DNA from: Candidatus Shapirobacteria bacterium
Lineage (GTDB): Bacteria; Patescibacteriota; Microgenomatia; UBA12405
DNA: 64,000 nt
Assembly (NCBI GenBank): GCA_041665485.1
Contig: JBAYIT010000002.1
Span: 261,867-325,866 of the forward strand
Direction of reading: 5' to 3'
Shown here one piece after another: positions 2,475 to 57,422 of this stretch. The position numbers and the translations under genes are program-made. Each line of letters opens with the position of its first letter. The first letter of the stretch is position 1. The notes under the pieces are model-generated. The model was not told where the DNA came from and did no database searches. It saw only the letters and a program-made list of their open reading frames with translations.

Positions 2475-5400
2475 TTAATTATAATTCCACCCCGACACTA
2501 TCCGTCCGATTATTGACGGCATACTAAACACAAAATCGGGTCGATATTTTATTGTCACTGCCGGGGCCTCGTTATTGTCTCCACTATCGCTAAACGATCG
2601 GTCGATTTTAATCTGGCTTGTCCCTCCGCTCGAATGTACTATCCCACTGATTGTCAAACCACTATCTAAATCTCCCCCAATATTAATATTTTTGTCGGCC
2701 ACAAAAACTCCTTCCGAATTTGTTACCTCCGATAAAAATGTCAAATCTCCACTACTTACCACCATTAAAAATTTATCTTGATTGACCGTATTATTTACAT
2801 CGATCGTCATGTTTCCGTCAACCAGAACTATTCCCGTTCCTCCAATTCCGGCTATCACCGAGCTCAAACTTGTTCCTGCCCCCACCACTTTAATTGAATT
2901 TAACTTTCCCACTAGACTTTGAGAGAAATAAGCATGATTATAAATACTCGATCCCATTAAGTTCCCACTTGGTCCTTTCCAAGACCAATTGTTGGGACTG
3001 CCAAAAAAAGCATTGTCGCCAGCCAACCCCTTGTTAATATCTATCGCTGTTACCAAGCCATTATCATTGGCCCCCGTCGCGCTTTCCACCGTCATTGCTG
3101 GCTTACAAGCGCTCGCCGATGCGCAAGTCATCGGAATTCGATTATTAATTGCACTACTCGCTCTAATTCCTCCTCCTACCACTTGATACCAAGCATCCTG
3201 GGTCAACACCACCGAAAAATCTACATCCAAATTTTGGCTAACCGCGTAAGCATCCAGGAAACCTGGAGTCAATACTAATCTAAAGTCCCCATTTACACAC
3301 ATCTGCGGTGACAAACGATTAACTCCGCTATAAATAAAAACTTCATATGTCCTGGCCCAATTAAGTTTTTCTCCGGCCGAGTCAGAGTAGTTTGGCGCCG
3401 ATACTGTCATTGTTTTATTACCATATCTTAGGCTGTAATCAATTGTCGACAAAGTATTAAATCCATTCCCATTGGCGCAGTTTGGTGTCCCAAAAGGAGC
3501 GTCCGACCCGTCATACAAACTCCCGGACACATTCACCTCGCAATTCCACACTTTAAAATCCCTATTAGTGTCCGTATTACTATTGGTTAGCCCCGATTTG
3601 TCAGTAATTGTCACCGATAGGGGATAGGTGCCAGTCCCATTATCGCTACCAGCAAAGTCCACTTCAGCCCGGGCAACTGCCCCGGCCAAAGTCATATTGT
3701 AATTTTTCCCGTTCCACCCCAACACCACCGAAGCAATATCCGCCAAACCATTACTGTCACTCACCCCTGCTTCAAATATCACTCTTCTCGGTATGTCTGA
3801 ATCCTGAAAAACTAACTCACAAATATGGTTTCGTCCGTCGCCAGTTGTTGCCACTGTTGCATCAGAATTCTTAATTGTAAACGACACCAGTTCTGGCGCA
3901 TTAGCCACCGGCGCCACCGGATGAGTTATCACAAAATAACGTGGCAAAGACCAAGCTGTTTCAACGCTACAGGTTTTGTTTTGTGCCGCTACTTGCCAGT
4001 AATAAACCACGTTATCAGAGAAAATCGAGCTGTTCACCACATACTGATTAGTCGCTATCCCCGCCAAAGTCATTTCTGTCACCATCACTCCCTCCCGATA
4101 AACAGCAAAGTAATAGCCATCAGTTAAAGCGTCAGTATTAGCGTTCCATCTAAAAGTTATTGTTGTTGCCGGATTAACAATTGTTTCCGGATCGCCCGAC
4201 GTTGTCCCCGAAGATACGGTTGTTGGTGTTGGCGGAATCCCTGCATCAGTGTTAGCGCAAAAATCACCACAGCCATTTTCCTGTCCGCAATAAGGAGCGT
4301 TACAAACACAGCTACAGCCACCGCAGTTATCACAACTAATTACCTTATTTGCCGTTGCCGACCAGCTTGAATCTTTACTGAAATTGTCCGTCGCTTTAAC
4401 CCGGCCGTAAACCGTTCCTTCACTCATCAAATTAGTGTAACTTTGCGAAGTTGCTGTTGTCACCGACTGCTGTAAACTTGTCCCCGAAAAATCGACAGTA
4501 TTGGCTGTATCTATCTGATAATTCTTCACCCCGGCGCAACCATTGTCAGACACTACCCCCCAGCTACCAGTTACATTAAATCTCCTCACCCCACCTACTA
4601 GTCCGTAATAAGAACAAGATAGTGCCAGCGACGGTGTCATTGGCCCCAGCGAGTCTGATTTCACCCACACTGGTGTAAACCCACTTCCAGTAGTTGATCC
4701 ATTTTTATATCTCGCCGTCACCGACACACAAGCATTTTGAGCCAAGCTCATCGGAACAGTGTAACTATCCACTTTTCCCGCCTTAATTACCGGGTCAGCT
4801 ATATCACTATTGGTAACATAAGTTTCTCTAATAGCGCACGCCCCAGCCACATCAACCCCCGTCCAATTCCAAGTCGGCGTCCCCGCCGACACGCAAGTAG
4901 CACTACTCCCGCCACAACTTGTTGTTCCGTTTGTACTTACCCCACTAATACTGCCAAACACTGGTGTCGAAGGTGGGGCACAATAGGTTGCCATCCCTCC
5001 GCAAATATCACTATCTACTGGCAAATTGGTGTTCCGATATTGAACACACATTTTCTTATCGCCATAAGTTGCTGAAACAGACTTGCTTTTTACTGCCACC
5101 ACTGGCTCCCAATCCTCCTGCCAGCGGGAATCATCAGCACTAATCCCAGCGCAACTTTCACTACTCCCCGGCTGCAAAAATCTCACCTGATTTACTCCCG
5201 TGTCATAGGCCAAGTTTATGCTAGCCGCCGGCGAACTCAAATAACAAGCACTATTTCTTGGGCTTGCGCTCCACTGGCTATAATTACAACCATTAAAATT
5301 GGCATCATTCCAGTCAACACACCTCGGCTTGGCGTAATACTGCGTCATCGCTCCGCATTTAGCCTTATCTTCGTTACTATTTTTGTATTCCACACACAAT

Positions 5401-8045
5401 TTCTTTTCCCCATACCCGCCAAGCGACAAGGTCCGGTTAACCGTTGCTGTCACCGGATTCCAAGTCGTCCAACCTGTCTGACTATCAGAAACCGAAGCGC
5501 AATCCCCACTGGCAATTTCTATAAATCGGTAGCTAGTCACTCCGGCGCTCCAACTTAAATTCACCGGCACGGTTGTCGAGGTAGTAAAACAAGCCGTATT
5601 TCTCGGGCTACTGTTCCACATCGCCCAACTACAATTATTAATTTTTATGTTTCCCCAGCTATCACACACCGGCAGGGCCACATAATACTCTGTCATCGCT
5701 CCGCATGGCAAGCTATTTCCATAGGTATTTTTGTATTGAGCACACAACTTTTTCTCCCCATATCCCGAACTCAAGACTTTATTTTTTGTTGCTGCCACCG
5801 TCTCCCAAGCCGACCACCGACTATCCTCCGAATCACCATCAACAATCACCGGAAAGCCGTCCACTGCACTACAGTTTTCGGCACCTCCTACTTCTGCAAA
5901 CCGAACATGAGTTGCCCCCAAATCCCAACTCAAATTTACCGGCACGGTGGTTGAAGCTGTCAAACAAGAAGCGTTCCTCGGACTAGAGTTATACATCGCA
6001 CTATCGCAGTTATTAATCTTCACACTGCTCCAACTATTACAACTCGGTGGACCTTCCACCAATTCATAACTCAACTCTGTTTCTACGTTGTATTGATTAG
6101 AAAAAACCACTTTGTGTGTCCCCAAGCTACTCGTCCCATTCCACATATTACTCGTCCCAGCCAAACAGGTGAAATTCCAGGTATAACTTCCACTTTTTGT
6201 TACCGTACAACCGTGTAAAAGTACATCTGCATTCTGTTGTATGGTTCCTCCGTCTTCTCTCCACACAATATTATTGTCATCATAATAGCTGGCATTACTT
6301 TCTCCACCCCGCGTCGTATCATGCAACCTCACTTTCGCCGGTACCCCATCTGCTCCGGCAACAGTCACCGTAAAACTCACACTCCCTCCCGGTAAAACTT
6401 TTGGTGTGTTCATCACTCCACTTGCCCTTCCTGGGTCAAAACAATTGGTTACAATATTCCCCACCTCCGTCCCTTTCACATAAGCCTGGGCGCAAACTTT
6501 CCCTCCACTGTATTTCCAATCTGCCCCCCAAGGCGCGCTTTGCGCCGGCTCACCATCTTCACCCGTACACATCACTCCTGAAACAGTACAACTTTCAGCA
6601 TATCCGCGGGGAGTGTACAAACTACTTGTAGAAGGGCCAATCTTAATCTGTGTTTCCAAATTACAACAACCGCTTGGATCAGCATCTCTCGCCGCCTCTG
6701 GGTTAGGTGAATAGCCAAATTTTGATGGAATATCCGCCACCCTAACATCAAACCTGTCAGAGTTACTTCTATTTGTCCTAATATTAGGGTTAATAACAAT
6801 TGTTGATCTGCTCGGGTAATCAACTGGGTTGCATGGGGCAAACGTTGGTAACTTTCCACAACAATACTGCGTTCCATTTCTTTCGCAATAATTATCACCA
6901 TCACTACTTTCACTACAATTTTGTCCGTCCAAACCTTTTCCCGAAGGGCACCATTCATGTTGTCCGGGAGCGTCTCCACACTGGCTATCCAAAAAACAAT
7001 CAGTGTTTCTGGCCGGGGCACAAGCCGGCGGGCCACAATCAACAGTACACGCATTATAACGACAACATTCTCCAGATGGACACTGAGAATCAGACGTACA
7101 TCCCGGTGGCACCGGTGTATTCGTCGCTATCGGCGCCACTCCTCCGCATGTCCCTCCACATCCATCACTCCCTCCATCCGCCACCCCAACGCAGTCAGGA
7201 GTACAAGTCCAACTACAATCTCTAATCGGGCAAGACGCCGAAGAACAGTGAGACATTTGGCAATCCTCCCGATTTGTAAATCCGCAAGATATCGCCCCCG
7301 ACCCTGCCCCCGCTACACAGTCTCGGGTACAAGTACCCAAGTCACCTAACCCACATGGTGCAGAAACATTGTCACAAGTCCCACCACCAGGAGTACAACT
7401 ATAAACATAACTTCCACACTCATATGTTCCCCAGCAAGTTCCTGCAGCCATCGCTGGTCTAACCAGTTTCCAGCCAACCTTCGACTTACGAACCAGGCGA
7501 ATAAATTGGCTCTCCCTGGAATATTTACCGGCAACCTGGTTACATCGGGTGTCATCGTCAAATCTGTCGTTATATCTCGACTGAAAACAAATCATTTTTA
7601 ACACGCCAAATGTCGTTCTCCGCCAAATGTACGGTATATTGTTTCGATCCGTCAACTCCACCAATGTCTCCGGTGAATAATAAATTCTGGCCTGATTAGT
7701 CAAAATTCTATTTTGATATCTAAAGCCAAAGGCTTGAAATGGCGGTTTATTAACATTCGAAAACAATTTATAATCATTTTCGACCTTACCACTCAGCACT
7801 ATCTCTAGTCGCAATGGCCAAACAATCTTTGGCCTACTAATTTGCTCTCGCACCCCACCACCCCAATAATTAATCTCTCCCAAAAAAGCATTAAATTGTC
7901 TCCAATCAATTATTTGTAATTCATATTCCTGTACTTCCGAAACCAGCTTCACTCGTGTTAACGTCACATAGCCAATAACCACCAACAAAAATACTAACAA
8001 CAAAACCAATAACTTCTTCACACACTCATAATAACAAAAAATCAA
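2475..8045 (-). CDS. Giant (1856 aa) cysteine-rich repeat-containing cell-surface protein, N-terminal TM anchor; putative T4P-associated adhesin
   Basis: Single uninterrupted ORF. TTG start directly after the TAG stop of the upstream lipoprotein gene. Residues 11-30 form a hydrophobic helix. Residues ~195-410 carry about 40 Cys. Three tandem ~115-125 aa repeats (motifs NNCSWAMWNSSPRN and GYGEKKLCxxYKNT). Gly/Ser/Thr-rich C-terminal beta-like region. Confidence 0.7.
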   Translation of the reverse strand: MIFCYYECVKKLLVLLLVFLLVVIGYVTLTRVKLVSEVQEYELQIIDWRQFNAFLGEINYWGGGVREQISRPKIVWPLRLEIVLSGKVENDYKLFSNVNKPPFQAFGFRYQNRILTNQARIYYSPETLVELTDRNNIPYIWRRTTFGVLKMICFQSRYNDRFDDDTRCNQVAGKYSRESQFIRLVRKSKVGWKLVRPAMAAGTCWGTYECGSYVYSCTPGGGTCDNVSAPCGLGDLGTCTRDCVAGAGSGAISCGFTNREDCQMSHCSSASCPIRDCSWTCTPDCVGVADGGSDGCGGTCGGVAPIATNTPVPPGCTSDSQCPSGECCRYNACTVDCGPPACAPARNTDCFLDSQCGDAPGQHEWCPSGKGLDGQNCSESSDGDNYCERNGTQYCCGKLPTFAPCNPVDYPSRSTIVINPNIRTNRSNSDRFDVRVADIPSKFGYSPNPEAARDADPSGCCNLETQIKIGPSTSSLYTPRGYAESCTVSGVMCTGEDGEPAQSAPWGADWKYSGGKVCAQAYVKGTEVGNIVTNCFDPGRASGVMNTPKVLPGGSVSFTVTVAGADGVPAKVRLHDTTRGGESNASYYDDNNIVWREDGGTIQQNADVLLHGCTVTKSGSYTWNFTCLAGTSNMWNGTSSLGTHKVVFSNQYNVETELSYELVEGPPSCNSWSSVKINNCDSAMYNSSPRNASCLTASTTVPVNLSWDLGATHVRFAEVGGAENCSAVDGFPVIVDGDSEDSRWSAWETVAATKNKVLSSGYGEKKLCAQYKNTYGNSLPCGAMTEYYVALPVCDSWGNIKINNCSWAMWNSSPRNTACFTTSTTVPVNLSWSAGVTSYRFIEIASGDCASVSDSQTGWTTWNPVTATVNRTLSLGGYGEKKLCVEYKNSNEDKAKCGAMTQYYAKPRCVDWNDANFNGCNYSQWSASPRNSACYLSSPAASINLAYDTGVNQVRFLQPGSSESCAGISADDSRWQEDWEPVVAVKSKSVSATYGDKKMCVQYRNTNLPVDSDICGGMATYCAPPSTPVFGSISGVSTNGTTSCGGSSATCVSAGTPTWNWTGVDVAGACAIRETYVTNSDIADPVIKAGKVDSYTVPMSLAQNACVSVTARYKNGSTTGSGFTPVWVKSDSLGPMTPSLALSCSYYGLVGGVRRFNVTGSWGVVSDNGCAGVKNYQIDTANTVDFSGTSLQQSVTTATSQSYTNLMSEGTVYGRVKATDNFSKDSSWSATANKVISCDNCGGCSCVCNAPYCGQENGCGDFCANTDAGIPPTPTTVSSGTTSGDPETIVNPATTITFRWNANTDALTDGYYFAVYREGVMVTEMTLAGIATNQYVVNSSIFSDNVVYYWQVAAQNKTCSVETAWSLPRYFVITHPVAPVANAPELVSFTIKNSDATVATTGDGRNHICELVFQDSDIPRRVIFEAGVSDSNGLADIASVVLGWNGKNYNMTLAGAVARAEVDFAGSDNGTGTYPLSVTITDKSGLTNSNTDTNRDFKVWNCEVNVSGSLYDGSDAPFGTPNCANGNGFNTLSTIDYSLRYGNKTMTVSAPNYSDSAGEKLNWARTYEVFIYSGVNRLSPQMCVNGDFRLVLTPGFLDAYAVSQNLDVDFSVVLTQDAWYQVVGGGIRASSAINNRIPMTCASASACKPAMTVESATGANDNGLVTAIDINKGLAGDNAFFGSPNNWSWKGPSGNLMGSSIYNHAYFSQSLVGKLNSIKVVGAGTSLSSVIAGIGGTGIVLVDGNMTIDVNNTVNQDKFLMVVSSGDLTFLSEVTNSEGVFVADKNINIGGDLDSGLTISGIVHSSGGTSQIKIDRSFSDSGDNNEAPAVTIKYRPDFVFSMPSIIGRIVSGWNYN
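4982..6041 (-). repeat. Three tandem coding repeats (~345-375 nt each) inside the giant protein gene (aa ~669-1022)
   Basis: The protein segments CNSWSSVKINNCDSAMYNSSPRNASC..., CDSWGNIKINNCSWAMWNSSPRNTACF... and CVDWNDANFNGCNYSQWSASPRNSACY... each end with a GYGEKKLC/YGDKKMC...YKNT/YRNT motif. Confidence 0.85.
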
Positions 8046-9755
8046 CTACCTAACTATCTTCAAAAGAGTTTTCATTGTCTCTAGAGACTCCATTTTCCCA
8101 TCCCACACCTTAGAGCTAATTTCTCTCAAAATACGTGTCGGTTCGCCAGAATTATCAACAGCCAAAACATCACCTCTTCCACTCAGGACGTTACCATCAT
8201 TATTAGTGGCAGACAACAGTAAGTGACCAACACGACTAGAAAGCTGCATATCGACCGCAGCACTAGCAACACGCTCCGGAACCTTATAGTCTTTTTGAAC
8301 AGAAACTTCTGTATCAAAAAACTGGCCAACAATAAGCAACTTTCCCCCAACCAAAACTAAATTAATATTGCTCTGTGTCGACAAATTAAGTGGTAAAGTT
8401 GGATATCCGCCTTCCACTGTCGCTATGTCAAAGACTACTCCTACATCCACTGTCGGCTTTCCATTCTTAACTTCTAATTTCCAATCACGAATTTGTCTGT
8501 CCTGGTTTTTATTGGGACTATCGACGCCACCATCAACTGCCGGAATCTTAAGAACCACCTCTCCTTTTTTCACCATCCCCACCCATTGATTATAAGTAAC
8601 ACTAGCTCGGCCGGTTACATCATCGCTCACCCACGACCGCCAAACCATTTTTAATGCCATCGCCACATGTTCTTTGGCTGCATCCTCTCTAGCCACCACA
8701 ATCCCTTTATAATCCCGCTCTGCCTCAAATCTATCAGTGTAACCAACCGATAAATTTACCTGTATTCCATCCACCTCCGCACTCAATGGCAGTTCAAAGG
8801 CTATCGGGTATAAAGCCATCTTTTGGCTTTCTACCTCTTTGTTTACCGCCGTTGGCGCCGCGTCGACTTTAGCTGGAGTAGGGGAGGCGGGTGGAGTCGG
8901 AGCAGAAGTTGGAGGAACCTGGGCGGTAGCCACCTGTGCCAACGCCACCTGTTCCCAATCTCTATCCAACGAGTCAAATCTCCAACTAATCTTTCCATCA
9001 ACCGAAACAATTGAGAGATTACCCAAAGAGTCAACCATCACTTTCTCTCCAGGCTTGAATTCTCTCCATCCCGCTAAAATTGGAGCTACTGCGTTTCCCT
9101 TTCCATCCCATGCTTGAACCATAGGACCATCGGCTCCTGTTGAAAATACTGCTACAGAAATGGCATAAGCTTCAGAGTCAACGTCTGTTGGTAACAAGTA
9201 TTCCTTCCCATCAGAACTCTTATATCTAGCCAAACCCCCACTACCCGTATGTTCTACAAAAGTGTATGTCTGTCCACCAAAAGAAAGACTATTCGGAGCG
9301 TCAAGTATTCTTGCACTTGTTCCGCCATCATAAAGCCTAGTTGAACCTTCACCGGTTCCCAGTGTCGCCAAAGTTCTCCCTTCTCCAAAATTAGTTGTTT
9401 GACCAATTTGGTCAGTACTCAAAGATGCAGACGCCACCCCCTCTGCTCCAATTGCTAACCTTTTTACATTGTGATCCAAAATTACTGGCCTGGTTGCCTT
9501 CTCCTTAACTGGTGTGTTCGCCACATAAGGAGCACTTATCGGTTTAACTTCTGTTGGTACTCCATTCGGTTCTCCTCTTGTCGGGCTTGGTGCTCCAGTC
9601 GCCGGTGGAGTTGTCGGTTCAAGAGACTTCACCGCCTCTTGCCCACCAGCACAACCACCAGTAAGATATGTCGTGGCCACAAAACCCAAGGCCCCTAAAC
9701 CCCTCTTCAAAACATTACCAAAAGATATCTCTGGACTCTTATTCATCCTATTCAT
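8046..9755 (-). CDS. Lipoprotein (lipobox LTGGC), two domains separated by Pro/Thr-rich linkers; translationally coupled to the giant protein gene
   Basis: N-terminus MNRMNKSPEISFGNVLKRGLGALGFVATTYLTGGC. PT-rich linkers (TTPPATGAPSPT, PPTSAPTPPASPTPA). Its stop codon TAG at 8046-8048 abuts the TTG start of the giant gene. Confidence 0.7.
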   Translation of the reverse strand: MNRMNKSPEISFGNVLKRGLGALGFVATTYLTGGCAGGQEAVKSLEPTTPPATGAPSPTRGEPNGVPTEVKPISAPYVANTPVKEKATRPVILDHNVKRLAIGAEGVASASLSTDQIGQTTNFGEGRTLATLGTGEGSTRLYDGGTSARILDAPNSLSFGGQTYTFVEHTGSGGLARYKSSDGKEYLLPTDVDSEAYAISVAVFSTGADGPMVQAWDGKGNAVAPILAGWREFKPGEKVMVDSLGNLSIVSVDGKISWRFDSLDRDWEQVALAQVATAQVPPTSAPTPPASPTPAKVDAAPTAVNKEVESQKMALYPIAFELPLSAEVDGIQVNLSVGYTDRFEAERDYKGIVVAREDAAKEHVAMALKMVWRSWVSDDVTGRASVTYNQWVGMVKKGEVVLKIPAVDGGVDSPNKNQDRQIRDWKLEVKNGKPTVDVGVVFDIATVEGGYPTLPLNLSTQSNINLVLVGGKLLIVGQFFDTEVSVQKDYKVPERVASAAVDMQLSSRVGHLLLSATNNDGNVLSGRGDVLAVDNSGEPTRILREISSKVWDGKMESLETMKTLLKIVR

Positions 9756-18528: not shown

Positions 18529-19359
18529 TTATTCTATCTTATTTAGAAAAAAAGCTACTAACACTCCTAAAAACAAAAATGGGCCAAATGGGATGGGTGA
18601 TTTTAGTTTCTTTTTATTAAAGGCCAACATCACCACCCCTACTATCGCTCCGGCAATAAATGCCACATAAAAAGCAATTATCAACCCCCGGCCACCCAAC
18701 AATAAACCCATAAACAAGGCTAACTTTACATCTCCTAGCCCCATTCCTTTGCCCTTAGTTATTAAATGTAACCCGCCCAAAAACGCCACTCCGCCTGCTC
18801 CTGCCAGCAATTTATCAACACTAAAGCCCATCATTAACGCCAAAATTATCAGCGCCACCGTCGCCCCATCCGGCAAAATCATATACTTCAAATCAATTAT
18901 TGTCGCAAACACTATTACTCCAATCATTACTAAGCTTAGCCCCAACAAAAGTAAATTTTGTAAATTTGGTAATTTGGAAATTGTTTGGAAATTGTATATT
19001 TGTAATTTGTAACTTATTAAAAAAAGCATCCCATTACCAAATTCGACTATAGGGTATTGAAGGGGTAGGGGAGTCTGGCAACACCTCGACCTTCCTCCTT
19101 GTATTAACCAAGAAATTACCGGTATATTTTCAAACCATCTCAACTGCCTCCCGCACCCATCACAAAACGACCTCTTGTTCGTCATTGCGATCCGCCGGCT
19201 GGCGGAGAAGCAATCCCGTTGAGATCGCCACGGCCTTCGGCCTCGCGATGACGTTAGTTTATTGTTTATCGCAAAGCGATAGACAGCCATATTCACAAAA
19301 CTCCCCACACACAATCCCAAAATAAAAACAATGAATTGAAAAAAAAGAATCACCACCAA
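18529..19359 (-). CDS. pilD: Prepilin peptidase (A24 family, PilD/GspO)
   Basis: TM1 LGLCVGSFVNMAVYRF. Zn-binding CDGCGRQ...GGRSRCC. Motifs YPIVEF, IDLKYMILPD and GMGLGDVKL (the two catalytic Asp regions). TTG start. Confidence 0.8.
   Translation of the reverse strand: MVVILFFQFIVFILGLCVGSFVNMAVYRFAINNKLTSSRGRRPWRSQRDCFSASRRIAMTNKRSFCDGCGRQLRWFENIPVISWLIQGGRSRCCQTPLPLQYPIVEFGNGMLFLISYKLQIYNFQTISKLPNLQNLLLLGLSLVMIGVIVFATIIDLKYMILPDGATVALIILALMMGFSVDKLLAGAGGVAFLGGLHLITKGKGMGLGDVKLALFMGLLLGGRGLIIAFYVAFIAGAIVGVVMLAFNKKKLKSPIPFGPFLFLGVLVAFFLNKIE
19180..19253 (-). repeat. 74-nt GC-rich nested-palindrome element embedded in-frame in pilD: outer stem CGTCATTGCGA/TCGCGATGACG; inner hairpins CCGCC-GGCT-GGCGG and GGCC-TTCG-GGCC
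   Basis: Read directly from the sequence. It encodes the cytoplasmic loop ...TSSRGRRPWRSQRDCFSASRRIAMTNK... The surrounding gene is AT-rich. Confidence 0.6.
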
Positions 19360-19361
19360 TC

Positions 19362-19607
19362 TTACCGTTTCTTGAAAATTTTATCCATTCCAACCCTTTT
19401 GTCATAATTCTTCATCGCTTCGGCCACTATTTTTTCCAACCTCTCTGTCGCTCTATAAATTTTTCCACTTTTTTCCTCTTTCTTCTCCACCAATAGATAC
19501 CTTATATAACTCGACACCGTCAATCCATTACTTTTAGCTTCCGCCAAAGCAAAATCTCTCAACTCAACCGGCAAATTAAATTTAACTTGAATTTGTTTTG
19601 TAATCAT
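19362..19607 (-). CDS. Ribbon-helix-helix (CopG/Arc-like) putative transcriptional regulator
   Basis: MITKQIQVKFNLPVELRDFALAEAKSNGLTVSSYIRYLL. The start is moved to the ATG at 19607 because TGTATAAT (rc of 19614-19621) lies 6 nt upstream. The ORF track start at 19625 would precede the promoter. Confidence 0.5.
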   Translation of the reverse strand: MITKQIQVKFNLPVELRDFALAEAKSNGLTVSSYIRYLLVEKKEEKSGKIYRATERLEKIVAEAMKNYDKRVGMDKIFKKR

Positions 19608-25371: not shown

Positions 25372-26499
25372 GTGTTTTCACCCATATTTACCATCAATCA
25401 CCGGATTTTAAAAAACATCGGCTCAACTGAAGCCGCTAAAGCGATTATAGAGGAAGCTCCACTGATTCCTGCCTACGAGAAACAATTCCAGCTCGACGCC
25501 GTTGTCAGAACCGTCCATTATGGCACCAGAATTGAAGGTAACGACCTTACTTTCCAGGAAGTTGCCAAATTAGTCGAAGGTAAAACCATCACCGCCACCG
25601 ACCGTGATATTCAAGAAGTTATCAACTATAGAAGCGTTGTTGCCTACCTTGAAGAACTCTGGTCCCTTTACGACGCTGGTATGCCCCTCCCCGAAGAAAA
25701 ATCGGTACCCACCACTGATTCCCGTCGCCCTTTCTTCTACAGTGAAACAATCATCAAAAGGATCCACTCCCTAACCACTCAAAAAATTATCCCCGAATCA
25801 GAAACCGGCAAATATCGCCACCAACAAGTTGTTTTGAAAAACACTAAAACCGGAGAAATCGCCCACCGCCCGCCACCGGCCCTCGAAGTTCCCTATCTCA
25901 TTGCCGATCTAGTCGCTTGGCTCAACTTTCCCGGAGCCAGAGAAATCCACCCCGTTATTCGCTCAGCTATCTGCCAATACCTCCTGGTTGCTATCCATCC
26001 CTTTATTGAAGGCAATGGTCGCACCAGTCGGGCTTTTGCCATGTTGCCACTTTATTCCGAAGGTTATGACATTAAACGTCTTTTTTCCCTCGAGGAGTAT
26101 TTCGATCGTAATGCTGAAAGTTACTACAATACCATTCAAGCCACCCACGAACTTTCTTCCGACATTTTTAAGCGTGATTTGACTGCCTGGATTGAATACT
26201 TTTCCGAAGCCCTAAGCATTGAGCTCACTCGGGTCAAAGAAAAAGTTCAAAGTCTTTCCCGCGACCTCCGCTTAAAGCAAAAGCTTGGTGGCAAACAAGT
26301 TCCTCTCACTGAAAGACAAATAAAATTAGTCGAATACATGCAACAATTCGGCGGTTTGCGTATGCCCGATGCACAGGAGCTTCTTCCCATGGTCTCCGAC
26401 GACACCATTTGGCGCGACCTGAAAAAACTGGTCGACGACAAAGTGGTTGAGAAAAAAGGCTCCACTAAAGGCGCCTACTACTGCCTCACCTCCGTCTAA
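25372..26499 (+). CDS. Fic/Doc (Fido) family protein with N-terminal inhibitory-helix-like IEGN motif and C-terminal wHTH-like region
   Basis: Active-site HPFIEGNGRTSRAF, the Fic motif HPFx[DE]GNGR. N-terminal GTRIEGNDLTFQEV. Confidence 0.75.
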   Translation: MFSPIFTINHRILKNIGSTEAAKAIIEEAPLIPAYEKQFQLDAVVRTVHYGTRIEGNDLTFQEVAKLVEGKTITATDRDIQEVINYRSVVAYLEELWSLYDAGMPLPEEKSVPTTDSRRPFFYSETIIKRIHSLTTQKIIPESETGKYRHQQVVLKNTKTGEIAHRPPPALEVPYLIADLVAWLNFPGAREIHPVIRSAICQYLLVAIHPFIEGNGRTSRAFAMLPLYSEGYDIKRLFSLEEYFDRNAESYYNTIQATHELSSDIFKRDLTAWIEYFSEALSIELTRVKEKVQSLSRDLRLKQKLGGKQVPLTERQIKLVEYMQQFGGLRMPDAQELLPMVSDDTIWRDLKKLVDDKVVEKKGSTKGAYYCLTSV

Positions 26500-53979: not shown

Positions 53980-55188
53980 ATGAACCAAAATAAATCACAG
54001 CCATTACGGGGTTTTCGAGATTTTTTACCTATAGAAGCCAGCAAAAGACAATGGCTCAGAAATAAACTATCGCAAATTTTTGAGAAATGGGGTTACGAAC
54101 CTCTTGAAACTCCCACTCTTGAACCATTGGAAATTTTTGAAAATCAAATTGGTGAAGGTGAAAACATGTTCTTTAAATTTGAAGACAACGGTGGCAGAAA
54201 AGTAGCCTTAAGATACGACCAATCAGTGCCAACTGCCCGAGTTGTTGCCAGATTTGCCAATGAAATCGCCTTTCCCTTCAAACGTTACCAAATACAGTCG
54301 GCCTTCCGTGCCGAAAAACCTCAAAAGGGAAGGTATCGCGAATTTGTTCAATGCGACGCCGACATTTTTGGAGTTAAAGATATCAGCGCTGACGCCGAAG
54401 TTATCGCCTTAGCCATATCCATCTACAAAGAACTTGGCTTTCCCCAAGCCAAAGTATTTGTCAGCGACAGAGATTTACTAAAAAATCTACCTTATGAAGC
54501 CATAATCGCCATAGATAAACTGGAAAAAATCGGCGAAAAATCAGTAATTGAAGAGATGGTTAAAAAAGGAATTGACAAAAATGAAGCAGTAAAGTATCTA
54601 AACCAAGCAACCAACCTAAAACCAAACAATAATATCGAATATATCCTCAAATATCTAAAAGACAGTAATATCGACGAAAACTGGTTTTCTTTCGAACCAA
54701 CCCTGGCCAGATCATTCTCCTATTCAAACGGACCAATTTGGGAAGTAAAAATACCAGGCTTTGTCAGCGGGTCAGTTCTCGGCGGTGAAAGATTTGACAG
54801 TGTTGCCAAAAAGATTTCCGGGCTAGACATCGCCGCCACTGGTTTTGGCCTTGGGTTTGACCGTACCATCGAAGCAATGGAACAGTTTAGCCTTCTTCCA
54901 AACTCCAAAACCAACACCAAAGTCCTAGTCACCGTCTTTTCTCCCGACACTCAAACCGAAAGCATTAAACTCGCCAACGAGCTTCGCCAAAGCAATATCA
55001 ACACTCTCCTCTACCCTACTCCAGAGAAACTTAGCAAACAATTTAAATATGCTTCTGACAAAAATATCCCCTACGTCGCCGTTCTCGGCCCCGACGAGTT
55101 AAAAAACAACACCATTACTCTCAAAAATATGATCACTGGTGAACAAAAACAGCTCAATTTATCAAGTCTCTTGGTTCAACTCTCTTAA
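53980..55188 (+). CDS. hisS: Histidyl-tRNA synthetase
   Basis: Class II motifs including GFRDFLP, plus a C-terminal anticodon-binding domain. Confidence 0.8.
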   Translation: MNQNKSQPLRGFRDFLPIEASKRQWLRNKLSQIFEKWGYEPLETPTLEPLEIFENQIGEGENMFFKFEDNGGRKVALRYDQSVPTARVVARFANEIAFPFKRYQIQSAFRAEKPQKGRYREFVQCDADIFGVKDISADAEVIALAISIYKELGFPQAKVFVSDRDLLKNLPYEAIIAIDKLEKIGEKSVIEEMVKKGIDKNEAVKYLNQATNLKPNNNIEYILKYLKDSNIDENWFSFEPTLARSFSYSNGPIWEVKIPGFVSGSVLGGERFDSVAKKISGLDIAATGFGLGFDRTIEAMEQFSLLPNSKTNTKVLVTVFSPDTQTESIKLANELRQSNINTLLYPTPEKLSKQFKYASDKNIPYVAVLGPDELKNNTITLKNMITGEQKQLNLSSLLVQLS

Positions 55189-55546
55189 TTCCCGGCAACT
55201 TGTCAAACTCCTTGTCGTAGGAAACAACCACCCCGTCTCCACCCATCACCGACCAAATCACACAATCGTTAAATTTTGCCTTGACCTTTTCAAATAAATT
55301 CAAGGCGTCTTCCATATTATATTCATATACTATCTCTCCCAAAGTTGTTACCGATCTCTGAAACTCAATAATCTCTTTCTTCGACGACTTGTAAAACCTA
55401 CTCATAAGCCAAACCATTTCTTCCACCACTACAGCGGGGATCAATACCTCATCAACCCCCTGTCTCAAAAAATTAACCAAACTTTTTGTCTCACCAACCC
55501 CCTCATACAATCTCGCTAAAATATTCGTATCGACATAATACCTCAT
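55154..55546 (-). CDS. PIN-domain ribonuclease (VapC-like toxin)
   Basis: MRYYVDTNILAR... Confidence 0.6.
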   Translation of the reverse strand: MRYYVDTNILARLYEGVGETKSLVNFLRQGVDEVLIPAVVVEEMVWLMSRFYKSSKKEIIEFQRSVTTLGEIVYEYNMEDALNLFEKVKAKFNDCVIWSVMGGDGVVVSYDKEFDKLPGIKRVEPRDLIN

Positions 55547-55791
55547 ACTCTATCGTAGTTTTCTTCCATGTATTTTCTAAAATCAAAATCAGCTGGCGCC
55601 TTTATTTTCGATTTTCCGGCAAATTCCATAATATCCTTAATCGGTTGTATTACAAATTTTCCGTTTTCCTCAACAATCCTCATTTTGCCCGGACTTTTTA
55701 CTTTCAACTTCTTTAATAAAATTTCAGGAAAATAGGCTAATTTTCTACTTGAAACCGAAACTAAGTATGTCATAAAATCATCATAATACAT
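55543..55791 (-). CDS. Putative VapB-type antitoxin (swapped-hairpin/AbrB-like)
   Basis: 4-nt overlap with the PIN gene. ...GKFVIQP... Confidence 0.45.
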   Translation of the reverse strand: MYYDDFMTYLVSVSSRKLAYFPEILLKKLKVKSPGKMRIVEENGKFVIQPIKDIMEFAGKSKIKAPADFDFRKYMEENYDRV

Positions 55792-55890: not shown

Positions 55891-56151
55891 ATGAAAGCTA
55901 ACACTCATCCCAAATATTACGACAATTGTCAGGTCACTTGTGCCTGTGGCAACAAATTCACCACCGGTTCGACTCTGGAAAAAATCGAAGTCGAAGTTTG
56001 TTCAAAATGTCACCCCTTCTTCACTGGCCAGCAAAAGTTTGTTGACATCAAAGGAAGAATTGACAGGTTCCGCGAAAAACAAGCCCAAGGCGCTTCTTTT
56101 GTCAAAAAATCCACTCGCAAATCTGCCACTAAAAAAAGTAAAGATAAATAG
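55891..56151 (+). CDS. rpmE: 50S ribosomal protein L31
   Basis: MKANTHPKYYDNCQVTCACGNKFTTGST...CSKCHPFFTG. Confidence 0.85.
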   Translation: MKANTHPKYYDNCQVTCACGNKFTTGSTLEKIEVEVCSKCHPFFTGQQKFVDIKGRIDRFREKQAQGASFVKKSTRKSATKKSKDK

Positions 56152-56196
56152 CTTCCTTCGCTTTTAACTTTTAACTTTATAACTTTAAACTTATTC

Positions 56197-56913
56197 GTGC
56201 CAACTATTGACCCTAATATTGCTGTTCTCGAATTTCGTCCCGGACCCGGTGGCGAAGAATCCCAAATCTGGCTTCAGGATCTGATGAACATGTACACCCG
56301 CTATGCCACTAAAGTTGGCTGGAAATCCAGCCTCCTCGACGATGATGTTGTCAAAATAACTGGCGTTGACGCCTACGAACAACTCAAGTGGGAAACCGGC
56401 ACTCACCGGGTTCAACGTATTCCCGTCACTGAAAAACACGGCCGAATTCATACCTCCACCGCTGCGGTGGTGGTTCTCCCCTACGTCACCAGCAACGACA
56501 TTACCATCAACCCCGATGACCTGGAAATGACCGCTTCCCGGGCCGGCGGTCATGGTGGCCAAAACGTTAATAAAGTCTCCACCGCCGTCCGTCTGCTTCA
56601 CAAACCCACCGGCATCACCTTCTCCGTCCGCCAAGAACGCTCTCAACAGCAAAATCGGGAAATTGCCATGAATTTACTTAAAGCCAAATTGTGGCAAATG
56701 GAAGAAGACAAGAAAAACTCCGGCGCCTCCTCCACTCGAAGCTCAATTGGCCAAGCCCTTCGCTCCGACAAAATCCGCACCTACAATTACGCCCGCAACC
56801 AAATCAAAGACCATCGCATCGACAAATCTTTTAATCTCAAAAACTGCCTTGACGGCGACCTAGTCGACCTCCTCCTCGAACTCACCGTCCTCAACTCCCC
56901 TCCCCAACCCTAA
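56197..56913 (+). CDS. prfA: Peptide chain release factor 1-like protein lacking N-terminal domain 1 (GGQ and PVT motifs present)
   Basis: 238 aa. RIPVTE (PxT tripeptide) and [12 protein letters not shown]. Alignment starts at roughly residue 107 of E. coli RF1. No upstream ORF encodes domain 1. GTG start. Confidence 0.65.
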
Positions 56914-57050: not shown

Positions 57051-57422
57051 TCAACCCCGCCGACTAATCACCATCACCGCAGGCTCAGTTTCACCGTTAG
57101 ATTTATTCCCAACACTAAAACCAACAAAGTCAACATGTTGCCCACGTGCCACCAAAGAAATCTCTACCTCGCCATAAACGCGAGTATGCGATCCATCTCC
57201 AGAATAATAATCAAACCCACCTTTTCCAGAATTCGCATCAACAAACACCCCATCGTCGCTTTCTGACCCACTGACTTCAACGCTTAAATCCACGGGGGCC
57301 TCCGACCCACGAACTAGAATAACACCTAATTCACTCAAGCCATCAGTTATCTCTTTCAGCCCCAACCTATCCCCCTCCTCCACAAATAACGGTTTATCAG
57401 CAATCAAGATTTCCGCTCTCAT
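57051..57422 (-). CDS. Hypothetical protein co-transcribed with htrA
   Basis: ATGA overlap with the htrA stop. Confidence 0.35.
   Translation of the reverse strand: MRAEILIADKPLFVEEGDRLGLKEITDGLSELGVILVRGSEAPVDLSVEVSGSESDDGVFVDANSGKGGFDYYSGDGSHTRVYGEVEISLVARGQHVDFVGFSVGNKSNGETEPAVMVISRRG

Follow-up and report, generated by a model that had tools for sequence, protein, structure and literature searches.

A predicted release factor 1 without domain 1 in Candidatus Shapirobacteria and related Microgenomates

A stretch of 64,000 nucleotides from Candidatus Shapirobacteria (assembly GCA_041665485.1, contig JBAYIT010000002.1, positions 261,867 to 325,866; called the window below) encodes, just downstream of the ribosomal protein gene rpmE, a homolog of peptide chain release factor 1 (RF1, the product of prfA) that is 238 amino acids (aa) long and consists of domains 2, 3 and 4 only. 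Comparative sequence evidence makes it highly probable that this protein is the prfA orthologue of the organism and a canonical terminator at UAA and UAG codons that has dispensed with domain 1. The short prfA is most likely the only RF1 gene of its genome. Its biochemical activity, including UAA/UAG specificity, is predicted from the intact decoding and catalytic elements described below.

Domain content and identity of the short RF1

The gene, the parts of its product and the region upstream are placed in the window as follows.

55891..56151, + strand: rpmE, encoding bL31 (86 aa; Pfam PF01197 Ribosomal_L31, E 3.7e-28, residues 1-63), ending in TAG
56152..56196, + strand: spacer between the TAG stop of rpmE and the RF1 start, 45 nt, too short to encode domain 1
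56197..56913, + strand: probable prfA orthologue without domain 1, 238 aa, GTG start, TAA stop; RF1 domains 2, 3 and 4 only
56209..56469, + strand: domain 2, the C-terminal half of PCRF, residues 5-91 (PF03462 positions 98-194 of 194, E 1.4e-30), which holds the GGEE helix tip
56338..56343, + strand: point at which 10 residues of domain 2 are deleted, by comparison with T. maritima RF1 and with E. coli RF1 (its residues ~150-160)
56422..56430, + strand: PVT tripeptide (the P-x-T "anticodon" of RF1), residues 76-78, read from the translation
56494..56817, + strand: RF-1 (GGQ) domain 3 and the start of domain 4, residues 100-207 (PF00472 positions 3-116 of 116, E 3.2e-34)
56554..56562, + strand: GGQ catalytic motif in its lineage-typical context, residues 120-122, read from the translation; invariant in the family; RF2 of Microgenomates has this context too

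The NCBIfam model of prfA (TIGR00019) gives the protein 277 bits, with a match to profile positions 113-343 of 361; the full four-domain architecture of RF1 is thus not present. Residues 5-229 align with residues 107-343 of E. coli RF1 in the PDB. The protein starts at the "DPxD" junction, around residue 103 of the E. coli factor, and the missing part comprises about 100 residues (1 to ~102). The top sequence match in the PDB is T. maritima RF1 (1RQ0, residues 87-320, E 5e-65). An AlphaFold2 model (pLDDT 76.6, pTM 0.72) superimposes on 1RQ0 with a TM-score of 0.81 over 237 columns; the predicted structure is a compact body of domains 2-3-4 with nothing extra, and its best fold matches are RF1 structures.

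Alignments with the E. coli and T. maritima factors indicate that GGEE (residues 18-21), Q73, P76-V-T78, I84, T86, the switch-loop region and GGQ are all retained. Q73, P76-V-T78, I84 and T86 we take to be the readers of stop codon bases 1 to 3, as in the termination complexes of T. thermophilus RF1. P76, T78 and all decoding and catalytic residues are invariant in an alignment of 67 family members, in which the mean column identity is 80%, and P-x-T was found in 81 of 81 proteins from the loci discussed in the next section. The domain-2 deletion, which removes a hairpin, occurs also in the ~300-aa and full-length RF1s of Microgenomates (for example, L023, L081 and L035), and therefore predates the loss of domain 1.

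The protein is distinct from RF2. Its score with the prfB model is 199 bits (cut-off 370), and it has PVT rather than SPF. Among the PDB matches, RF1 chains have E-values of 1e-65 to 1e-44, and RF2 chains of ~1e-40 or weaker.

The position of the start codon appears secure. In the window, rpmE and the RF1 ORF (open reading frame) occupy one reading frame, and the 45-nt spacer between them has no ATG, GTG or TTG in the RF1 frame, so that the GTG is the first possible start; nor does the spacer contain a terminator-like hairpin. The consensus N-terminus of the family is MPTI..., with P2 invariant and M1 nearly so, which also supports GTG as the start. In relatives, the gap between the called rpmE and RF1 genes is 9-21 nt. 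An earlier note on this DNA, made without database searches, had described a GTG-initiated ORF of 238 aa located 45 nt past rpmE, aligning with RF1 from about residue 107, carrying PVT and GGQ and lacking domain 1; that description is accurate in every detail.

Length classes and inheritance of RF1 in Microgenomates

A search of a collection of 5.8 billion proteins indicates that the short form is a family of uniform length. The best 120 matches are all 229-257 aa long and 70-100% identical to the query, and come from metagenome-assembled genomes (MAGs) of Shapirobacteria, Woesebacteria and Patescibacteria, from many samples; several of them are found on contigs of 0.66-0.95 Mb. We also scanned one genome per GTDB species and took the best 80 RF1 loci, all of which belong to Microgenomates-type MAGs (Shapiro-, Woese-, Ames-, Levy-, Chisholm-, Roizman-, Blackburn- and Curtissbacteria), although many TPA (Third Party Annotation) bins among them are mislabelled "Gammaproteobacteria".

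When ORFs are re-derived for the loci and the residues ahead of the shared core are counted, four classes of N-terminus emerge; the loci were chosen by motif patterns such as HGGQNVNK, and the class frequencies are no unbiased census. About 45 loci have approximately 0 residues ahead of the core (227-248 aa in total), five have 8-17 (~250 aa), about 30 have 55-78 (288-318 aa), and five have 89-105, which corresponds to full length (331-343 aa). In the short-class ORFs, the previous in-frame stop lies 0-23 codons 5' of the conserved start (84 loci), so that the short class has no longer reading frame. One seeming exception, a 72-residue N-terminus within the short clade (L075), is a spurious Cys/Arg-rich extension of the ORF, with the true start at MHTNPD.

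Gene order in relatives is the same as in the window: hisS, rpmE and the short RF1 gene are followed by htrA and ctpA on the opposite strand, with rpmE directly 5' of RF1 in L001-L004. The rpmE gene is immediately 5' of the full-length form, of the form with 55-78 N-terminal residues and of the Shapiro- and Woese-type short forms; it is not 5' of RF1 in most of the Roizman-type short clade. This common locus argues that the short forms are prfA orthologues and not accessory paralogues. Adjacency of rpmE and prfA is found also in Firmicutes.

A simple neighbor-joining tree of the core places the short forms in one large clade (Blackburn, Woese, Shapiro, Roizman), nested among the forms with 55-78 N-terminal residues and the full-length forms. 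Amesbacteria, with 18 residues, are placed apart from this clade, beside a sister with 65 residues. The tree and the length classes suggest that domain 1 was lost from the resident prfA progressively, and at least twice independently.

Several other sequences turned up in these searches. Two proteins of 477 and 481 aa with two RF stretches each (P0122 and P0126) were considered as RF fusions and rejected: both have segments duplicated internally and are products of misassembly. From a transcriptome labelled Digyalum oweni (EukProt) comes an RF1-like protein of 261 aa (P0161), in which ~19 residues precede the core; it could be either a bacterial contaminant or an organellar RF1 that lacks domain 1.

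Release factor 2 and stop codon usage

Stop codons of 50 long ORFs in the window are TAA in 28 cases, TAG in 14 and TGA in 8. As TGA ends genes, RF2 is required. The share of TAG among stops is 12-21% in the lineages with short RF1 and 19-25% in those with longer RF1; with values this close, termination that only RF1 can perform is in normal use.

We searched metagenome contigs for RF2 loci with a DNA pattern of GGQNVNK followed by the RF2-specific Trp-Gly ~62 codons further on. This gave 120 loci, nearly all encoding RF2 of the SPF type, several of which combine SPF with a Microgenomates-type domain 3 and are 335-375 aa long. Two homology searches started from RF2 cores collected ~240 proteins, almost all of 330-345 aa, which bear the NCBI name "peptide chain release factor 2" in MAGs of Roizmanbacteria, Levybacteria, the Microgenomates group and Patescibacteria. 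Two representative Microgenomates RF2s, both with the SPF motif, score 410-418 bits, above the prfB cut-off of 370. In Roizmanbacteria, RF1 of 229-235 aa (L029, L046, L060, L068) contrasts with RF2 of 330-337 aa. Judged by these sequences, the loss of domain 1 is specific to RF1, and the RF2 of Microgenomates keeps its N-terminal domain.

The prfB gene of Microgenomates belongs to a cluster of its own, in which rpoD and dnaG on the opposite strand are followed by a LytR_C protein, prfB, a 142-148-aa protein without a Pfam match, ftsE and ftsX (L284, L286-L288), with a PcsB/M23-like or C39-like peptidase after ftsX. A similar linkage of prfB with ftsEX is found in Firmicutes and Actinobacteria. 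Domain 3 of RF1 and of RF2 in Microgenomates has a common lineage-specific wording, with 64-79% identity over 70 residues (L170, L179, L181, L182, L191, L233, L244 and L278 compared to the RF1 loci). This likeness would agree with concerted evolution or gene conversion; E. coli RF1 and RF2 also have motifs in common (compare PMC4530459, in excerpt).

Shorter RF2s were seen elsewhere. Metagenome contig Ga0209541_10156010 (L199) encodes a 242-aa SPF-type RF2 that lacks domain 1 and has the same domain-2 deletion. There is also an RF2 family of ~290-300 aa with an N-terminus of ~50 residues (L190, L218, L231, L235, L242); one member of this cluster is labelled Candidatus Terrybacteria and annotated as "hypothetical protein". 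A 239-aa "short RF2" (L217) proved to be an ordinary RF2 disrupted at both ends and not a domain-1-less factor, and L181, picked by its GC skew as a Shapiro-type RF2, turned out to be Levybacteria-like. A total of 77 IMG/VR contigs (L087-L163), many of them longer than 200 kb, encode class-I release factor homologs or GGQ-domain proteins. We considered viral contigs as a source of RF2 of the Candidate Phyla Radiation and rejected them, as they have only distant RF homologs, at most 44% identical to the query.

Proposed mechanism, alternative readings and known systems

The history and mode of action of the short RF1 may be pictured as follows. Domain 1 would first have been shortened to ~60-70 residues, the state of other Microgenomates today, and would then have been deleted in the common ancestor of the large clade of Shapiro-, Woese-, Roizman- and Blackburnbacteria. 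What is left is a complete module for decoding (domains 2 and 4) and catalysis (domain 3), which would bind to the A site at UAA or UAG, open and hydrolyse peptidyl-tRNA like any RF1, with UGA stops read by RF2. The contacts that domain 1 makes to the L11 stalk and to RF3 would be missing, and the factor would leave the ribosome spontaneously or by the action of other factors, without RF3 or L11 contact.

E. coli RF1 from which domain 1 has been removed retains codon-specific release in vitro and function in vivo, but has lost its stimulation of nucleotide exchange on RF3 (Mora et al. 2003, cited in an excerpt of PMC1586002). Given this precedent, independence of the short RF1 from RF3, one of the options raised in the earlier note, is a reasonable inference. 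An exit without RF3 or L11 contact would fit organisms that grow slowly and have reduced genomes and simplified ribosomes; the ribosomes of Microgenomates have no uL30, mostly no bL9 and an altered uL1 (PMC9297842, in excerpt). In 1.57 Mb of Microgenomates loci, no PrmC was found, next to prfA or elsewhere, and the RF3 matches are to the generic GTPase domain only, a result that says nothing on whole genomes.

Whether the short factor is the sole RF1 of a large part of Microgenomates (many hundreds of genomes), where as a natural mini-RF1 it would end all UAG and some UAA frames beside an RF2 that keeps domain 1, is a broader proposition, in which we place about even confidence.

Several points weigh against our interpretation of the protein as the canonical RF1. 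The searches for a second RF1 and for a separate domain 1 covered the window and the loci, as opposed to whole genomes. The prfA score of 277 bits is below the curated cut-offs (423 in TIGR00019 and 400 in NF001859), so that by the NCBI rule the protein is no "equivalog"; this is expected of a truncated sequence, and the full-length Microgenomates RF1 of L081 passes the cut-off of 400 with 425 bits. The short RF1 and the full-length RF2 are matched at the level of a candidate phylum (Roizmanbacteria) and not within one assembly, and none of the ~240 recovered RF2 proteins is labelled Shapirobacteria.

The alternative that fares best, though still improbable, is that the protein is an accessory paralogue or a rescue factor of the PrfH/ArfB/ICT1 kind, working beside a full-length RF1 encoded elsewhere. 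PrfH likewise has no domain 1, and a second RF was looked for only within the limits just given; the earlier note, too, had named a specialised rescue factor as one of its options. The profile scores do not bear this out: PrfH gives 72 bits (TIGR03072, cut-off 167) and ArfB 51 (cut-off 100), compared to 277 for prfA. The ArfB match is confined to residues 98-135 (38 residues), and the protein has domains 2 and 4; PrfH chains in the PDB match over only ~100 residues in the region of the GGQ domain, with E-values of 8e-14 and 5e-10. P-x-T and every other decoding residue of RF1 are in place. Neither the window nor relatives L001-L004 have an RtcB gene within 10 kb of the RF1 gene. The locus next to rpmE is the prfA locus of full-length sisters, and the protein is nested in the tree of orthologues. 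No second RF gene is present in the window or within 10 kb in 84 loci, and no assembly occurs twice among the best 80. A match of the GGQ region by tblastn at 19359-19589 on the + strand (E 0.002) lies antisense to a real 87-aa gene, has no ORF and is due to chance.

A split gene, with domain 1 encoded as a separate small ORF and joining the core in trans, is less likely still. As domain 1 is helical and structurally independent, such an arrangement is conceivable, and here as well the search was confined to the window and loci. No domain-1-like coding sequence was detected by tblastn in any frame of the window, in line with the earlier note's view that no prfB-like frameshift or split gene exists there. 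Eight domain-1 queries (from full-length and ~300-aa Microgenomates RF1, from Microgenomates RF2 and from E. coli RF1) against the window and ten Shapiro-type loci gave a best E of 1.1, a weak negative, as domain 1 diverges quickly. The graded series of N-termini (~105, ~65, ~15 and 0 residues) points to progressive loss and not to fission.

We give an equally slim chance to a functional RF1 with a shifted role, either slower or regulated, or adapted to an altered L11/stalk, with RF2 doing most of the termination at UAA. The restriction of the loss to RF1, the unusual ribosomes of Microgenomates (PMC9297842, in excerpt) and the additional deletion in domain 2 would agree with such a shift. On the other hand, TAG usage is not depressed in lineages with short RF1, where termination by RF1 only is heavily used, and the excerpts of PMC9297842 contain nothing on uL11 in these lineages. 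A role shift in any case overlaps with the explanation we prefer, a canonical terminator without domain 1, rather than excluding it.

Finally, an artefact or decay (an assembly or frameshift error, as the earlier note had allowed, a mis-called start or a pseudogene) is effectively refuted: although single MAG contigs may hold errors and GTG starts are sometimes mis-called, the same length and MPTI... N-terminus recur in >120 clusters that are independent and derive from many samples and assemblers, an in-frame stop lies upstream at every short-class locus, and strong purifying conservation and a confidently predicted fold argue for a working gene.

Other features of the window deserve brief mention. 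The bL31 protein (55891-56151) has a 23-residue Lys-rich C-terminal tail past its Pfam domain, in agreement with the enlarged bL31 reported for the Candidate Phyla Radiation (PMC9297842, in excerpt). A 123-aa ORF without a Pfam match (57051-57422, - strand) shares 4 nt with the start of htrA and is convergent with the RF1 gene, with no terminator-like hairpin between the two. On the other side of rpmE, a PIN-domain toxin of 130 aa (55154-55546, - strand; Pfam PIN, E 1.9e-10) is overlapped by an 82-aa antitoxin-like ORF (55543-55791, - strand). This pair separates hisS from rpmE in the window and is present in L001 and L002; L003 and L004 lack it, and there hisS directly adjoins rpmE. Further away, a giant ORF of 1856 aa (2475-8045, - strand) and an adjoining ORF of 569 aa (8046-9755, - strand) have no Pfam match and are found beside a type IV pilus cluster (~539-24608) that includes PilM, several N-methyl pilins, prepilin peptidase, PilC-like T2SSF and two T2SSE ATPases. 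Positions 25372-26499 (+ strand), flanked by a DNA polymerase III delta-prime-like gene and ligA, encode a Fic/DOC-domain protein with a C-terminal DeoR-like helix-turn-helix. GC skew on the + strand is -0.12 to -0.44 in every 4-kb window (1-64000), whatever the strand of the genes. Comparable skew (absolute value 0.25-0.34) is seen in Shapiro-type loci and in L014 (Amesbacteria), L017 and L035 (the whole set being L001-L012, L014, L017, L035), compared to less than 0.15 in most other Microgenomates loci; the asymmetry of the window looks unusually large.

Full-text literature searches gave no account of an RF1 from these bacteria that is devoid of domain 1, nor do the excerpts of PMC6514570, on release factor evolution, and PMC9297842, on ribosomes of the Candidate Phyla Radiation, mention one. 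Annotations of public short RF1 sequences read "peptide chain release factor 1", "release factor-like" or "PCRF domain-containing"; these proteins escape the curated prfA models, which could bias estimates of completeness based on marker genes. What domain 1 does for RF3 coupling and for contact with the L11 stalk has so far been studied with engineered deletions only, and a natural RF1 without domain 1, conserved throughout a lineage beside an RF2 that keeps it, amounts to an evolutionary knockout. It makes testable the in vivo need of RF1 for domain 1 and for RF3-assisted recycling, the possibly greater dependence of RF2 on them, and the manner in which translation is terminated on the reduced ribosomes of the Candidate Phyla Radiation. 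If the mini-RF1 is what it seems, turnover of RF1 needs neither RF3 nor L11 contact, and RF1 and RF2 now depend differently on the stalk/RF3 system. Cell-free translation and structural work would also gain a compact tool in a fully functional RF1 of 230 aa.

Among known systems, canonical RF1 (E. coli; T. maritima 1RQ0) shares with the short factor domains 2-4, P-x-T, GGQ, the GGEE tip and the Q/I/T readers of the third base, whereas the short factor is without the whole N-terminal helical domain 1, described as canonical architecture of bacterial class-I release factors (PMC6514570, in excerpt), and has a domain 2 shorter by 10 residues. The domain-1-deleted E. coli RF1 has the same architecture of domains 2-4 only, but is a laboratory construct in a host that has RF3; the Shapirobacteria protein is natural, conserved in its lineage and presumably optimised. 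Other reduced factors of the Candidate Phyla Radiation follow the same trend of domain 1 trimming, but belong to other lineages or to the RF2 paralogue. PrfH (RFH) is also without domain 1, and retains GGQ and a codon-recognition-like domain (PMC6514570, in excerpt). It differs in its diverged recognition domain, in having rtcB next door, in its sporadic horizontal spread and in its role in the rescue of damaged ribosomes, whereas the short RF1 appears to be inherited vertically, with RF1 motifs intact and no rtcB nearby. ArfB, ICT1 and C12orf65 have the GGQ domain in common with it, but are without domains 2 and 4 and probe the empty mRNA channel with a basic C-terminal tail; the short RF1, by its domain content, would be a complete reader of stop codons.

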